Shown piece after piece: positions 5,613 through 22,251 of a stretch of 64,000 nt of DNA. The stretch lies in the NCBI GenBank assembly GCA_010093705.1, contig MU006092.1, positions 378,623 through 442,622 on the forward strand, written 5' to 3'. Position 1 is the first letter of the stretch. Every line of letters starts with the position of its first letter. Below the pieces are notes generated by a model. The model had not been told where the DNA came from. It saw only the letters and a list, made by a program, of their open reading frames with translations, and searched no databases. This stretch comes from Patellaria atrata CBS 101060 (Eukaryota). A program made the translations under genes and the position numbers.

Positions 5613-7307
5613 ATGATGATCAGATCACGACAAGACTGTGGAGCCGATCCGCTCTGGCAACCGACTGTTGAAGCTTATCAAGCTGCGGGCACAGACAACC
5701 ACCTCAGGTCTTGGTGGATTGAAACCTCAAGTCGAAGCGGACATACGTCTTTTGCAAACGAACTTGGAAGGCAATTTGGAGATCACAGAACGTCTTTCGA
5801 GTGCGGGATTGGGGATACCGCAACCTGCACGCTCTCTGGATGTTCTGGTAGCTTGATCAATTCTTTGAAAGCACTTTTCAGGATAGCTTACCTAGTTTAG
5901 ACTACCGAAGTGGCGGGGACGCTGCGTGGTCTTATCAAGCTCTTATTTCCACGGTCAATCTGAATACACTGTTCAACAACATCAATGCAAGTCGTATCTT
6001 CGCGATAGACATGTGAAACTGACGCTAACCATTCAACTAGGACGGAATCTCCAATGGACAGCAGGACTTCACAAACCTGATAGATGGTTTGTCACTGCGA
6101 TTCTTCCCGTGGAACGAACCGGAATTCGCCTTCGGAGATGCTTCTTTCTGGATTGTTGCCCTCCTTAGTATGTTGTTCGCTGCGATCCCGGTCATCGGAC
6201 CTTCAATCGGTGTAGGACTGGGAGCTTTTGCCGGAGCCGGAATACAACAAGCAGCTTATTCGCTTGCGCCTGAGTAGGACATCCAGTTTATAAATACCCT
6301 ATAAGCTACTAACATTGATCAGTCCAGATGGTGGAATCCAAACCGTATTGAGCATGAATCAGTACGCTTCAGATTTTGCTACGACGACCCGTTCTCAGTT
6401 GGATGTTTGGGCAAACACAACATTCCAGGGGGGGATGGACATGAACAACAAGAATATACTGTAAGCATCACCCCATAATGGTACAGGACCAAACCAACAG
6501 AATCTTAGTGACTATCTCGCCGGTGGGAGCTTCGTTGAAACCACAGGACTTCCAAGTACGTCCGAGATTGAAGCTTTTTATAAAAAACAGATGATATCAA
6601 GGACCATAAATTCCCAATGGAGGACTCGCAAAGTCTTCACGACTTTTTTCAAGACAAATGATTCAGCCGACAGTTCCGGTCCGAATGAAACGAAATGGTA
6701 TTCCCCAGAAGACGGAGGTGTATATTATACCTATATGTACGACGAAGATGGAACGTTGAAGGGCCATCTAGACAAGCCGTATGGTTTTGATTACCTTAAT
6801 GGCTCGGATTACGATATCCTCGGGAGTGAGATCACTCAGGCATCCGCCCGTGCCTTCAGATATGGTGGATTTAATTACACTAGAGAGATGGCGGTCGAAC
6901 AAGCCCAGGCATCTCTATCCTCCGGCGGTAGCCTCACCCCGTTTAGGGACGGAGCAGCTTGGAGTGGTACATGGAACCTCCCTGTATGCGAATTGCCACC
7001 ATCTCATAACTGGAACACCCCATTTGGGAATAAGACTTCTCGGTACGGGATTCTACCTTGTTGCTGCGGGTCAAATTGCGAAGATACAAAAGCTTTCGTT
7101 AATGCTACGAATATGCTAGGCTTTCAAACCTTGCTTAGGGGTTGCAAAGCTCAGCTAAAAGGAACCGATTTAGACTTCAGCAGCATTGACTATGGCTTCA
7201 AGTTAAAAAAGTCCTGTAAGCTTGGGTGGGCAGTATCGCCGGTCTGGAAAAAGGCTATGGCTGTAATACTGATGCCGATTTTTCTACCAATGGTCTGCAT
7301 GGCATGA
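5613..7307 (+). CDS. Uncharacterised 5-exon Cys-containing protein with a central hydrophobic hairpin and a C-terminal hydrophobic helix
   Basis: Splices into one open frame using introns 5848-5900, 5987-6040 (GC-AG), 6274-6322 and 6461-6508. Contains FWIVALLSMLFAAIPVIGPSIGVGLGAFAGAG, ILDYLAGGSFV and LPCCCG. The true start is uncertain because of an in-frame TGA at 5610. Confidence 0.75.
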
Positions 7308-7987
7308 CGCAGTATGATGATATCCACTAATGAGTTTGTGTCTCTCTTTTTAAGTTCTTTTCAAATGTTTTCTTTTCTCATACGAACAGGGTGGGCTCTT
7401 TGGTACTATACTTTGTAGTATAAAGTACTTGTTGACTCTAAAATGTTTGGCGAATGGTAATGGGGCGTCCTTTGAGTTCCACACACTATGGCGACGGCTT
7501 CGATCCTGGTGTTCTTTTGTAAAGTTTTCCCGAATTAGAAAATTTTCAACTAACTTCGTACTGTACATATCTATTAGGACTTGAAAATAATTTATGATTA
7601 TCATAGGAGTACTATTCAACTTACCTTGTAGACAAGCATATTAGGTTCTTAGATCGGTTGTTTATAGAACAAGGAACGATGACGGGAGGGAGCAAGGGGA
7701 GATTGCCATCCACTAAGGTTGCCTAACCTAACGGAAGGACCGTGCGCAATTTCCCTTGAACCAGAACTTTACCTTAACATCACTGTACTGTGGGTGTCTT
7801 GCATGTAGTTCCCAGTATTGCACAATCCAAATACACTTCTGTCTCTTTATAGTTCTACTGTCGAATCCGATAGTGTGCTGAAACCTTATCTAGAATACGA
7901 TCGGAACTATCCTACAAAGATATATCTCTCCAAATTCTTCAATCACCACGCACATGCTTGGTCAAGCAATATTATATCGAAAACACT

Positions 7988-10442
7988 ATGAATGATATCA
8001 CATCGTATAGCAGCGATGAAGATATAATCAATAACGATTCATTCTATAACAACCCGGTGGCTATGTTCGAAAGTCTTGGAGCCGGTCTACCGGAAAGGCT
8101 ACCGACGCCATCGATGCTATCTGCGAAAGAGGTCCGCTCTAAGGCGCGGCCACTCGTTGAAAATATCATAACTCAATGGAACCTCCTGAATGGAATCATA
8201 GAGAGATATGAAGCTACTATCCAGAAACGATGAATGAAGAAAACTACACAACAGCGCAAAGACATCCTTTTGACAGCATGGCCAAATATGTCAACAACAC
8301 ATCGTCCAGATATCGATGCATGGAAGATGAAGAACGACCGGACATCGAAATCAAAAGAGGACACATACTACTTTCCTTACATTAACTTAGAGGATTTAAC
8401 CAAACCGAGGCTGTTACTCTTGTTCTTCAATTCTAGAGGTCGCAACCCCCCCAACGCATTTGCCAATGCGGATCTCAGAGCAACTCACTTTGGTCAAACC
8501 TCACAAAGAATTATTCCTTTTTCTAAACGAGTATACCATGATGTTTAGTGACAGCCGGTGGCCAGACAGATATGGAGAGCTTATCTCATGGGACGACCAC
8601 CCAGATGCATCTCAGTGGCTCTTTACTGGACGCGGTGTTCATCCAGGACATGGGTTATGGATCTTACAAGTGCAGGAACGTTTGTACAGGTTCTTGGTGG
8701 ATTGCTGCAAACATATTGTGCATGACATTCCGGCTGCGAACTTGACGAATCTCAACCAGTCGATTCAACCTGAGCCTCCGTCACTATCAAGCAATTCTGA
8801 TGATTTTATATCTTTGACTATAACTGCAACGGAAGCTCCATATCGTCTTCCAGCTCATCTGAATTTCCGGAGACTAGAGTCACTTATTGAAGCAAAGCTA
8901 TCAGAAGCAGAGGACTATATTTGGTCATTAAGAGAAGACTTAGGTTACTCTGCTTCCGCCATTCTTGAATGGAAAGAACACCGTCGAGAAACCATGCTCG
9001 ATACTCGCGGCCATAGACACCCTGACTTCAACCCTACTCCAAGTACTTTGTTCTGGAATCGTGTCATAGTAAACGTGACTTCTTGGGCGTTCTCAAGGGT
9101 AGAAATATGGGGTCGACTTCGCGATATGGTCGCTGAGCTCTGTCGTCTCCAAACTGTGTATGCGGACGATATCTCCCCAGACAAAGATCTTCCTGAGCCG
9201 TACAAATCTGCACTATTGAGCTTTTACTTCCATCTGACTCAATTCGTCAAGGGCTCAATAGGTTCTCTAAAGACAGGTTTTATTCCCTCTCCGCCTATAC
9301 GGCCTTGCTTCGTGCGTGAACCACAGGAGCCACATTCTACAATTATCAGGATGATAAGGAGAACAAATCTAACCAAAATCAAAGGCCGAGAAGATTTGAT
9401 CTGGATATTCATGACGCTCTTTGATGAACGACAACTACATATTGCTGGTCTCAATACGTTGATGGACGAACTTGAGAGGCTCACGGAGAGCGATAATAGT
9501 ATAAAGGATTTGGTCTCACCGTTGGTAGCAGATTTTGTATCAGAGCTAGCATTGTTTTCACAGTGCCTATATCAAATTGAGTTGTACCAACCATGGGCAG
9601 CTACCTTGGAGCATGACTTGGCAGAGAATGATGAAAATCTTAAGGCTGAATACGTTGAGTCCCAAAGGCCTATAGCTGGATATGTTGGTTATCAACTATC
9701 TCCGAGAATAGTAGAACTCGGTACACCAGCGGGAGACAGGTTCCGCTACCCTATCGACAAGCGACGAGCTCGCCAAAATGTAGAGTCAATGATAGCTGCC
9801 GAGAAACAGCTGGATTCATTTTGGAACGCCTTGGATCTCCAGTTAAACGGCGCCGGCAGGATCTCTCCTCGCCTCAAGGCACTTTTGAGGCAACGTATGC
9901 TTCATCGAACTCCGGAGTGGCAAGAACCTCAAGGGAAATCTAGCACGTCGGCGGTTACAGAAGACGAGGGAACTGTTTTATTCCCTCTCTCTAGTCTAGG
10001 ATTTCACGTAGGAGAGGATACTGGCCGATACACATTTACTCAGTTCAAAGTCAAGCCTAAGACTCGCGGTGCCGCACATCCTATTCAGGAGGCGGAAAAG
10101 TCAGATGAAGTTACACCGTCTCCGCGAGGTCACAAATTTACGGTTGACAAGCGAGCTTTCAAAGTCTTCAACACTTTATTCTATACCCCAACAGTTTCTT
10201 CACAACCGGGCACGATAGCTTGGGCAGACTTCCTTTATGCCCTAGCAGCGTTAGGTTTCACGGCTGAAAAACTATACGGTTCCGTATGGCAGTTTCATCC
10301 AACCAAGCTTGATGTTGAGAGAAGCATCAATATCCACGAACCACATCCAAGTGGTAAAATTCCATTCACAACAGCAAAGAGGCATGGGAGAAGACCGAAT
10401 AGGGCATATGGGTTGCATACGGAAAGCTTCGTCCTGTCATAA
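7988..10442 (+). pseudogene. Disrupted ~810 aa fungal protein with a C-terminal HicA-like domain
   Basis: Three collinear ORFs. An in-frame TGA at 8231-8233 (IQKR*MKK) sits where Trp is expected, and a frameshift occurs in the T-run at ~8516-8523 (RIIP / FLNEYTMMF). The C-terminus reads IAWADFLYALAALGF...YGSVWQF...IHEPHP. Confidence 0.75.
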
Positions 10443-11911
10443 GTATGCGTTGCGGTTTGTTCACTGGATCAGGATAATGATTATTATATATAGGGCCGAC
10501 GAACGACCAAACAGAGTCTCCATCTATGTAGGAGCCTGGAACCGGGAGGTAAGTATTGAATGTAGGAACAATAACTGAAATGAAAACTTAAATCTATACC
10601 AGTCTCTTCCAGCTCTAGTATCTTTGCAAACTAACTATGTCATGTATAACCTGGAATTGCAACTCAGGCGATACGTTCAGTACTTTTAGCTTGTGAAGTC
10701 TGACATGATACTTTTCCCTTTTTGTTGGACGTCATGTTCTGTTCCATCTCCTTTTGTTTCTAAATTTTCTAGACTCAGCTTTCCTACCGCCCATTGCCGC
10801 CTCTCAAATGACTGAAGAGTTCATGGATTTCATTTCTTCGGTTCCATTCTTCAACAGGGAGTACAATCAAAAGTCTTTGCTCGTCTTAATGGATCACAGT
10901 TCTTTATAATCCCCTGTCATAGAATATCTCATCTACTGCTTGCTTACTCCCGAAGGATTCTCTGCAAAATGACTCATTAACATATGAAGGATTCCTCAGC
11001 GTACGTAGGACTAAACCGTACAGCGATAGAGGTTTGTTGATACTCCAAACGTAACTCACGCCAGTAATTGTCCAGTGAGCGTATGAGACCCGAGAGATAC
11101 CGAGAGATGCCGAAAGGTGACAGGAAAGACAACCTTCTATGCAATGAATTGGTGGTCCCAAGGAGTTTCTGCGAATAAGGTGTTCCTCTCGTGGCATGCA
11201 ATGATTCTGGATAAACATACATGATGGAAGAGATGATTCGTGCCGCATAACACACAATAGTTCTGTAGGCGGTCCCACTCGACCAGTTGGCCAAGGGCCC
11301 TGGATAATTGGGATAGAGATCAACCCGGGTTGGCGGTCTTAGACTCTTAGTTGTACCCCATACTTTACATCAACCGCGGAGAGAAGGACTACTGTATATC
11401 CTCGGCATCGAACGTGATGCCGATCTTAGCTCGTCTTCCATACGATTCAATTTCTGTCATATAGTTAGAGTACTTGGAAGTACATGTTCGGTGAGTTCGG
11501 TAAACAATTCATTCCCGAAAAGAATTAATGATGTTCCTAAAGCGTAGACGAAGCCGGCGGAATCGCTCCCACGCTTGCGTGTGAGTTGAGGGCATACAAC
11601 AGCAATAGTGATCATACTATTAACAACTATTAAGAAAAAAATATGAACGACGAAAGTAAACCCACGAACCATTTACTTGGACTATTGTATCCGTTTTTCC
11701 ACGCACGTCATATATTCCCCCGCGCACTAGACATGGCATATAGGCTGAATGTGGTAGTCCTCAAGCTTGGCGACATGGGCAAACCCTTGTATGAACAAAT
11801 TGAATATGCAGGCACCGGGAAAAAAGAATCTTTCTAGAACAAACACTCTATCCTCGTCCGCAATATAAAGACATATATCATGGGTTCTCCTCCCAGGATA
11901 GTGCAGAAACA

Positions 11912-20593: not shown

Positions 20594-22251
20594 TCAATCA
20601 TACTCATCATAAGCATACGCGCCCCTCTCCCTCTGCGTCGAGCAAAACTCCTCACTAGCCAATCCCTCCTCCATCCTCCTAACCAACTGAACAGGATCCT
20701 TATGCCAATCGCACGCATAATCGCACTCAGGCCTGGCATCCTCCCCAAAATAATCACAGATAATCTGATGCCTACACCTGTTAGTCGCTTCACAATAGCC
20801 TACCAGCGCCTGCAGACTCTTCACCCTAGTCTCCGCCTTCTGCACTGCTGCCGCAGTGACTTTCGAAGTTTGCTGTCTCGCCACGTCTTTAGCCATGAGC
20901 TGGAACGCTCTGTCGCGGTCCTCGCGCCCATAATACAGTATGCAGACTGCTGCTTTGCCGTCGCGGCCCGCGCGGCCGGCTTCTTGGTAGAAGCCTTCGA
21001 AGGACTTGGGGATTTGCCAGTGGATTACGAAACGAACGTTTTCTTTGTCGATGCCCATGCCGAAGGCGGTAGTTGCGACGATGACGTCGTAGCCTTCTTT
21101 GTTTGCGACCCAGCCGGCGAGGTGGTCGTCTTTCTCGGGGGGGGGAAGGCCGGCGTGGTAGGGTTTTGCGCCGATGCCGTCGGAGCGGAGGCGGGCGGCG
21201 AGGGATTCGCAGTCGCGGCGGTAGAGGGTGTAGATGATGCCGGGAACGTTTGTTGTGCGCTGGTTCAGACTGGCGAGCTGTGCCGCTCGGTTTGAGCGAG
21301 CTGCTCGTCGAGAGTGCGTGGCGCGGATCCAGGAAAGGAAGTCGTCGTAGTGGTCCTCCTCGTCGGACTTGAAACGGACCTCGAAGTGAAGATTTGGGCG
21401 GCTAGTGGTCATGGTGAAGAGACGGAGTTTTCTGGGATCAAGTTCGAGGACGTTAAGGATGTCGTTTCTGACACGTTCAGTGGCTGTGGCGGTACAGCAT
21501 ATCATTGGGACGTCGGGGAATTCGCGTTTGAAGAAGGATAGGGACGTGAATGCTGGACGAAAGTCGTGACCCCATTCACTTATACAGCTGTATAGGGGTT
21601 AGATTATCATTGTATTTATGGTCGTCTACTTACTGGGCCTCGTCGATGGCGATTCGTGCAAGTTCTCTCTGCGAGTGGATGACCCTGAGAATCCTACGAA
21701 AGTGGTCCATCTGACAATATTCAGGAGTAACGTAGAGGAGACGGATATGTGGATGACCGCATTGTAAATCTTCGAGAATCTCCTTCCGAGTAGAAGAATT
21801 GGTACCGCTGTTGATAGTAGCTACTTTGATACTAGCAGCACGCATAGCTGCTACTTGGTTGTTCTAGTTTTCCTGTCAGCTAGTCCAGACCAACAGAGAC
21901 TGTTTTTCATACCATCAATGCTAGGAGCGGAGACACTACAATGGTGACTATATAAAGAGGTTAATCCAAATTTTCTGTGAGGTTTGAAGGGAGTATTACT
22001 CCCGTAATCTACTACTGCTGGTAACTGATAACACAGACTCTTGCCGAAAGACGTGGCAGCTTGGAGGAAAACATCATCACCCTCGAGAGCCGCAGCAATG
22101 ACTTCCCTCTGGACAGGTCTTTGGAGAATTAGAATTTGCATTATGTTTTGAGGATACTTGGGTCCGACCTGAACGTTGATTTTCCAAAGACTCGACGGAG
22201 TGTGAAGTCGATATCGATCACCCTCGACCTTACCTTCTTCTGTGGGGGCAT
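20594..22251 (-). CDS. Short RecQ-family DNA helicase (helicase core plus Zn-binding RQC part, no HRDC seen)
   Basis: ATG 22251 (MPPQKK...IDIDFTLRRVFGKSTFR); multi-intron. Motifs AATSFGKSLCYQLPA, YVTPE, DEAH/CISEWGHDFRP (intron-split), ATTAFGMGIDK, QEAGRAGRDG and CRHQ...CDYACD. Confidence 0.93.

Follow-up and report, generated by a model that had tools for sequence, protein, structure and literature searches.

A C-terminal domain probably related to bacterial HicA in a conserved fungal protein family, with a decayed gene copy in Patellaria atrata

Can a toxin-type RNase of the bacterial HicA kind form part of a large eukaryotic protein? The question was raised by a gene of Patellaria atrata CBS 101060 (Dothideomycetes) that lies in a stretch of 64,000 nucleotides from contig MU006092.1 (GenBank assembly GCA_010093705.1, positions 378,623 to 442,622 of the forward strand). 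This whole stretch is referred to here as the window, and positions are counted from its first letter. An earlier reading made from the letters alone, hereafter the sequence-only reading, had noted that the last ~100 amino acids of the gene, placed at 10137..10442, resemble a subgroup of HicA mRNA interferases. The translation is as quoted: the residues are encoded at 10137-10439 on the + strand and are followed by TAA at 10440-10442, and the longer translation of 10017-10439 (+) holds the quoted string ...FTVDKRAFKVFNTLFYTPTVSSQPGTIAWADFLYALAALGFTAEKLYGSVWQFHPTKLDVERSINIHEPHPSGKIPFTTAKRHGRRPNRAYGLHTESFVLS and then the stop. HicA is treated in the literature that we searched as a toxin domain of prokaryotes and phages. 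We propose, with a probability of about 0.7, that the proteins of a conserved fungal family end in a domain that is homologous to bacterial HicA and has diverged from it, that this domain acts on RNA in the intact proteins, and that the copy in the window has decayed.

Resemblance of the C-terminal domain to HicA

The structure of the last 141 amino acids was modelled with an alignment of 73 homologues. The predicted local distance difference test (pLDDT) score of the model is 81-95 from residue 41 onward, and its elements follow one another as strand, helix, loop, helix (residues 69-78), three strands (81-85, 90-95 and 104-107), helix (117-131) and last strand. The core, from the helix at 69-78 to the helix at 117-131, has a pLDDT above 90 and the α-β-β-β-α arrangement of HicA, which is similar to that of double-stranded-RNA-binding domains (dsRBD). 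In a structural comparison with 48,161 chains, the four best matches were all of HicA type. Foldseek gave no match at E ≤ 0.001; among its first eleven were 6g26_E, with a probability of 0.94 and a TM-score, relative to the target, of 0.68, and also 1whz, 4c26 and 5yrz_B. Such scores are not high in themselves, but a fold of only 60 residues would hardly give higher ones. The HicA/dsRBD-like fold foreseen by the sequence-only reading is thus what the model displays, with HicA chains as its nearest structural matches.

The bacterial subgroup described by that reading was recovered as well. A search for PF07927 in 121 Pseudomonadota genomes gave matches in 52; among the weaker matches, 20 in frames of 80-105 codons were examined. 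Eleven of these 20 (loci L115-L121, L125-L127 and L130) encode proteins of 84-94 amino acids with the pattern H.KTL..IF..P....W..IE.L..LG....G.GS.V.F....FH[RK]PHP, which we call long HicA and which were combined in the profile A4. The remaining nine, which were GSH-type proteins or had no clear frame, were left out. All six long HicAs that were tested pass PF07927 with 35-44 bits against a cut-off of 27. The open reading frame (ORF) that follows the gene is HicB-like in four of six cases (PF05534, 17-22 bits, from scans of partial ORFs only).

Profile-profile comparison connects the fungal domain to this subgroup. In hhalign, a 20-sequence alignment of the fungal domain (A2) matched A4 with a probability of 92%, an E-value of 6.5e-7 and a score of 41.0 over 65 columns at 32% identity. 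The aligned pairs, fungal sequence first, are KRAxKVFxTLFxxP with HRKTLxxIFxxP, I.W with I.W, GF with GA, YGSVWQF with GSRVxF, and IQFHEPHP with xxFHRPHP, so that a single register is kept across five separate motifs. The score is about 12 standard deviations above those of 200 column shuffles (mean 12.2, standard deviation 2.4, maximum 22.0), and a reversed alignment scored 13.5. An independent signal came from a hidden Markov model (HMM) of A4 run unfiltered on 267 fungal proteins: 66 of them scored at least 10 bits (maximum 19.1), in every case at the C-terminal domain and within 60 residues of the C-terminus, and no control reached 10 bits (maximum 3.7 for reversed and 2.3 for shuffled copies). 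A4 itself matched 29 canonical HicAs, namely the 30 best loci minus one with an internal stop, with a probability of 89%. Profile support for HicA, as expected by the sequence-only reading, was obtained from hhalign with the long subgroup and not from PF07927, whose threshold was not reached. The one homologue of 56 to match PF07927, P0111, did so at E 0.027 and 15.0 bits (cut-off 27), at the expected place and over positions 1-54 of the 58 in the profile. In the ESM Atlas, 26% of the 88 proteins in one cluster of this family are labelled with PF07927, and automatic annotation thus already touches some of the members. The profiles and the model together suggest, as the best reading, that the C-terminal domain is very probably homologous to HicA through the long subgroup.

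Conserved histidines and likely nucleic-acid binding

In experimentally studied HicAs (PMC11594946, PMC12297915), RNase activity and toxicity need a His at the start of β2 and a Gly two residues before it. The catalytic residue is His23 in Escherichia coli, His24 in Burkholderia pseudomallei and in the gonococcus (where the Gly is Gly22), His28 in Yersinia pestis HicA3 and His36 in Streptococcus pneumoniae (PMC11594946, PMC12297915). In the fungal family, G88 and S89 (P0002 numbering) are invariant in 74 of 74 sequences, and G88 aligns with the G of GSH, the conserved Gly two residues before the His. H107, P109, H110 and P111 are likewise invariant in all 74, so that both histidines of the HxPHP motif, whose conservation the sequence-only reading had proposed to check, proved to be fixed. 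Their counterparts H57, P59, H60 and P61 are invariant in the 11 long bacterial HicAs and align on the fungal HxPHP, and the canonical-His position is R, S or A in these 11. The long bacterial HicAs have three invariant histidines in all (H5, H57 and H60 of the 84-residue form). The second His of HxPHP is the counterpart of the PHP histidine in canonical HicAs, a residue that in gonococcal HicA is said to be "close in space" to the catalytic His24 (PMC12297915).

A number of results weigh against a HicA homologue that acts on RNA. A Pfam scan of the window protein returned no family at E ≤ 10, and 55 of the 56 homologues had no PF07927 match. Single-sequence and profile searches of PDB sequences yielded no HicA. 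A pattern scan of 185,579 prokaryote species genomes found no close relative, with 61 matching stretches and none confirmed, and the fungal profile found nothing credible in 401 Pseudomonadota genomes, though such genomes carry long HicAs. The 11 sequences of A4 were chosen by the motif H[RK]PHP, and a match at the HxPHP motif was therefore favoured. When the fungal profile was compared directly with the 29 canonical HicAs, the register was the same and the probability was 5%, with a score of 18.5 that equals the best of 100 shuffles; because this direct comparison is not significant, the link from the fungal domain to canonical HicA is transitive through the long subgroup. With regard to activity, the canonical-His position is V, A or I, never H, in 74 of 74 fungal sequences, and the H40A variant of gonococcal HicA, altered at the PHP-equivalent site, is still toxic (PMC12297915). 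An active nuclease is not implied, since the canonical His is missing throughout and this variant retains toxicity.

Several candidates returned by these searches were rejected. The PDB sequence matches, a designed helical protein and ATP synthase subunit d (E ~0.4-0.5), were judged to be chance. Matches of the fungal profile in bacterial genomes (5, then 401 genomes; E 0.09-0.7) translated to unrelated ORFs, and four matches of the P0123 domain among 72,556 plasmids (tblastn, E 1-9) lay under unrelated genes.

The sequence-only reading had spoken of a catalytic His. The HxPHP histidines are indeed invariant, and yet the label "catalytic" can be applied to them only as a hypothesis, because the experimentally defined His of HicA is absent from every fungal sequence. 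The first His of HxPHP is at the end of β3, the strand paired with β2, and the strand topology of the model suggests that this residue may replace the missing one. Helix α2 is rich in arginine (ARRxGRRLxR, with GRR invariant), which fits binding of RNA or another nucleic acid. Judged from these conserved residues, intact members of the family likely bind RNA. Cleavage of RNA by them is plausible, at somewhat less than even odds. We know of no RNase assay for the fungal family or for the long bacterial subgroup.

The fungal family and its copy in the window

In a word-based search restricted to proteins of 374-1190 amino acids, 152 of 730 candidates qualified as homologues at E ≤ 1e-3; most of the homologues are 800-870 amino acids long. 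Their named sources include Dothideomycetes, Eurotiomycetes, Sordariomycetes, Leotiomycetes, Geoglossomycetes, lichen-forming lineages, Mortierella, Podila and Entomortierella; the family thus spans Pezizomycotina and Mortierellomycota. Hardly any of the homologues comes with a precomputed Pfam annotation. When a nine-sequence profile of the domain was searched exhaustively with HMMER, it gave 1,925 representatives of 50% identity clusters at E ≤ 1e-3, 1,103 at ≤ 1e-10 and 434 at ≤ 1e-30; the best 150 of the 1,925 all belong to this fungal family, and a possible bacterial tail would lie beyond them. A search of short proteins (55-177 amino acids) returned eight, all of which are fragments of the fungal family and none of which is bacterial.

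Intact members of about 840 amino acids comprise a helical region of ~660 residues, a disordered linker of ~70 residues with the motif KxKxKTRG, and the C-terminal domain of ~100 residues. The full-length model of P0006 (Trichoglossum hirsutum, 839 amino acids; 73-sequence alignment) has a mean pLDDT of 83 and a predicted template modelling score of 0.80. It is mostly helical to about residue 665 (pLDDT mostly 85-97), disordered at 666-734 and HicA-like at 739-839, and the helical part forms one compact region with no repeat solenoid. The linker, with a pLDDT below 50 in the models, is poorly conserved around its motif, of which K13, K15, T16, R17 and G18 (P0002 numbering) are invariant or at least 90% conserved; from this conservation, KxKxKTRG may serve as a signal in localisation, processing or docking. 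The N-terminal region contains many invariant polar residues, for example in HRPD, REDP and EHRQE. It matched no Pfam family in the 56 homologues and had no informative fold match, and NACHT, NB-ARC, HET, WD40, ANK and TPR gave no match in these homologues at E ≤ 10. The predicted complex of the N-terminal region with the HicA-like domain scored 0.20 (mark 0.34), which speaks neither for nor against docking.

Nine long or odd-sized members compared with P0006 had the same architecture, a tandem double copy, or a gene model merged with a SET gene, and none had an alternative architecture or shuffled domains. A Pfam scan of eight long or odd members returned no family for any of them. P0131 (1751 amino acids) holds two full-length copies head to tail, with residues 42-865 and 927-1748 each aligning to P0006, and results either from duplication in tandem or from the merging of gene models. 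P0071 (Fusarium mundagurra) and P0074 (F. fujikuroi) show a family member or its C-terminal domain joined to a downstream SET domain; of the family sequence, P0074 has no more than the final ~130 residues left. These were not accepted as true fusions; they look like merged models of neighbouring genes because the SET part follows the C-terminus of the family.

The fungal classes are scattered in a quick maximum-likelihood tree built from 73 full-length proteins of the family, with four changes for Eurotiomycetes, four for Sordariomycetes and three for Dothideomycetes. The eight Mortierellomycota sequences (P0094, P0101, P0104, P0114, P0115, P0120, P0121 and P0122) group together with a support of 100; the stem of this clade is short, and its neighbour, with a support of 96, is an Aspergillus sequence. 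The eight are 46-50% identical to the Trichoglossum protein and no more distant from it than many Ascomycota members. This pattern suggests old paralogy or horizontal movement, including transfer between phyla; as the tree is unrooted, it does not choose between the two.

The gene in the window, at 7988-10442 (+), is a decayed member of this family, which we read as a fairly recent pseudogene. Searches with intact homologues by tblastn placed the true start of the gene close to 7988. In frame +2, the stretch 7979-8518 matches residues 11-191 of P0006, and 8015-8521 matches residues 20-190 of P0014; from 8520 to 10436 the alignment with P0006 (its residues 193-838, 54% identity) is in frame +3. 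The N-terminal segment, which in the ORF list starts with ATG at 7988, covers 81 codons to ...YEATIQKR (7988..8230) and is closed by an in-frame TGA at 8231..8233, where IQKRW becomes IQKR and a stop (W82X); the Trp is present in 72 of 73 homologues. The same frame continues at 8234..8518 (MKKTTQQRK...QRIIP). One extra base at 8519 then shifts the reading by +1, as seen from the change of the alignment from frame +2 (to 8518) to frame +3 (from 8520), and leaves no space for an intron. Positions 8520..10016 encode what remains of the large, mostly helical region together with the first part of the linker, and the basic linker motif, here KVKPKTRG, is at 10047..10070. In the HicA-like domain (10137..10439), an extra strand and helix precede the α-β-β-β-α core and the last strand. 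Its codons G-S-V at 10278..10286 put Val at the place of the canonical catalytic His, according to the alignment and the hhalign register to GSH. H-E-P-H-P at 10335..10349 matches FH[RK]PHP of the long bacterial HicAs, and the gene ends with TAA at 10440..10442.

Two read-derived contig sets cover 7600-10800 with zero differences at word depths of 313 and 452. Since both show the same letters, the TGA and the frameshift are not slips of assembly; the two sets are from one sample, probably the assembly's own source, and do not represent an independent isolate. Because of these two lesions, the full protein cannot be made from the window copy. The conceptual product departs from columns that are at least 90% conserved at 11 of 138 sites (8.0%), where the 73 homologues have a median of 2.9%, a 95th percentile of 10.1% and a maximum of 14.9%. 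The departures in the C-terminal domain include R793K and L799P, each at a position invariant in 73 of 73 homologues, and W805L. The fusion of a HicA-like domain to a large fungal protein, as stated in the sequence-only reading, thus holds for the intact relatives, where, in the P0006 model, a linker connects the domain to a large N-terminal region, and fails for the very copy in which it was noticed, which is a pseudogene.

The neighbouring genes in the window are ordinary and include a GH67 glucuronidase, a kelch protein, a GH5 cellulase, an SDR protein, TCF25, PP2C, UTP25 and others. No direct or terminal inverted repeats were found flanking the gene, and no marked AT-rich island was seen around it. 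A 334-codon frame at 20597-21598 (-) has Pfam matches to Helicase_C and RecQ_Zn_bind only and is either an intron-split part of a larger RecQ-type helicase gene or a fragment. Just upstream of the gene, at 6465-7307 (+), is a 280-codon frame that is Cys-rich near its end and matches no Pfam family.

Possible function and comparison with known systems

We propose that the domain derives from a long-HicA gene taken up from bacteria and that, in the intact proteins, it would bind RNA and may cut it by means of the invariant HxPHP pair, which appears to adjoin the canonical active-site position. The flexible linker tethers the HicA-derived domain to the large conserved N-terminal region, and this region would hold or direct the domain in cis. 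Such control is suggested because no HicB-like partner was detected: HicB families were not among the Pfam matches of the 56 homologues at E ≤ 10, nor was a HicB chain among the fold matches of the full-length model, lists that a divergent HicB-like part could escape, and the flanking ORFs in the window are unrelated. The biological role may be in defence, addiction or housekeeping. The cell-death, allorecognition or antiviral system suggested by the sequence-only reading received no direct support, as the proteins have no architecture like that of nucleotide-binding leucine-rich-repeat (NLR) proteins and no repeats, and the neighbours are ordinary.

Other explanations have to be weighed against this proposal, beginning with the possibility that the likeness to HicA arose by convergence or chance on a very common small α/β arrangement. 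The domain is small, its structural scores are modest, and the Pfam and PDB sequence searches were negative; against this stand the HicA type of all four top structural matches, an hhalign score far above its shuffles with one register over five motifs, the HMM signal of A4 that always falls at the right place, and a sub-threshold PF07927 match that spans nearly the whole profile. We consider convergence highly improbable. It is also improbable that the gene in the window functions as annotated. A 680-codon open frame at 8400-10442 (+), closed by the HicA-like domain, is still present and matches, at 100% identity, the C-terminal portion of a public 711-amino-acid hypothetical protein of P. 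atrata CBS 101060 (P0003), which retains the whole domain. This public model bypasses both lesions by starting at the Met after the TGA (8234) and by splicing out the frameshift region as an "intron". It thereby loses ~80 residues at the N-terminus and, around FLNEYTMMF, a conserved stretch of ~30 residues present in every intact homologue; moreover, the change of frame is of a single base with no space for an intron, and the product carries the excess of departures at conserved sites described above, including R793K and L799P in the domain.

Two further readings concern what the intact proteins do. In one of them the domain keeps a HicA-derived fold and does not cut RNA, being a dsRBD-like module for binding RNA or protein in a family that is not a toxin system and whose real activity resides in the N-terminal region. 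The replacement of the canonical catalytic His in every sequence fits this reading, as do the enzyme-like invariant polar residues of the N-terminal region, the good conservation of the whole protein (mean column identity 43%) with no variable repeat region, the ordinary neighbour genes, and an Arg-rich α2 with invariant GRR that suits nucleic-acid binding. It is nevertheless rather doubtful, given the two invariant histidines beside the canonical site, the same His pair in a bacterial subgroup that adjoins HicB-like genes and is thereby suggested to be still a toxin, and a gene tree that is scattered relative to fungal classes, with copies that decay, which is more typical of accessory or conflict genes. 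The opposite and bolder reading takes the intact members as a eukaryotic single-chain toxin-regulator, in which a captured long-HicA RNase with HxPHP as its relocated catalytic His would be fused to a sensor or inhibitor, spread between lineages and phyla (Ascomycota and Mortierellomycota), act in conflict (e.g. abortive defence against mycoviruses or an addiction module) and often be lost by decay. We regard this as unlikely. Taken by itself, the decayed copy in the window matters little. The interest lies with the family, for which the HicA likeness is a first handle on ~840-amino-acid proteins so far without annotation.

The closest comparison is with the long bacterial HicAs, which fall within PF07927 and, like the fungal domain, have an extra N-terminal helix, no GSH histidine, and the motifs IF..P....I.W, LG, GS.V.F and FHxPHP in the same order. 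They are stand-alone proteins of 84 amino acids followed by a HicB-like gene, whereas the fungal domain is the C-terminus of a protein of ~840 amino acids in which no HicB-like part was detected; the fungal domain also has a longer β2-β3 loop, the Arg-rich α2 with invariant GRR and a final strand. A search for a solved structure of a long bacterial HicA gave no match better than E 0.5. The canonical HicAs of E. coli, B. pseudomallei, Y. pestis (HicA3) and S. pneumoniae share with the fungal domain the fold, the Gly before β2 and the PHP after β3, but they have the catalytic His at the start of β2 where the fungal family has V, A or I, and their direct profile-profile similarity to it is not significant. 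Bacteria and fungi thus share a HicA subtype in which the validated catalytic His is absent and an invariant His pair is kept beside the active-site position. This raises a testable question about the HicA nuclease mechanism, and also the question of how long bacterial HicAs without the GSH histidine could act as toxins.

Among larger proteins, the Spok proteins of Podospora and Fusarium offer an analogy only: they too are fungal, combine toxin and control in one polypeptide as the present family would, are patchy in distribution and are frequently pseudogenes (PMC12693581). They have no homology to the present family, in which such functions are hypothetical; Spok proteins contain nuclease and kinase domains, and their killing and resistance have been shown by experiment (PMC12693581). 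The bacterial polymorphic toxins of the S8-PTS and RHS types resemble the fungal proteins in having HicA as the C-terminal module of a large protein; they are secreted toxins ~50% identical to the HicAs of toxin-antitoxin systems (PMC9424270), and the fungal proteins are far more divergent and gave no sign of secretion in the tests made.

A parallel in organisation is given by the fused HicAs of prokaryotes (Gerdes 2024, classes 11-14, e.g. SMC with a C-terminal HicA; PMC10865869), which also have a C-terminal HicA in a single polypeptide and place regulator and toxin in one chain, the same logic as is proposed for the fungal family. They are bacterial or archaeal with HicB or SMC partners (PMC10865869), and the fungal N-terminal region matches neither. 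The 14 genetic contexts listed in that survey, the most recent on HicA, are all prokaryotic, and the words "fungi" and "fungal" are absent from the portion available (PMC10865869). In the 2009 census of toxin-antitoxin systems, "fungi" does not occur, and the one use of "fungal" is in a reference whose title concerns APSES factors; the literature searched yielded no paper on fungal HicA domains. A large conserved fungal family, with 1,925 clusters at 50% identity and a HicA-derived domain, would extend the contexts of HicA to the eukaryotes.

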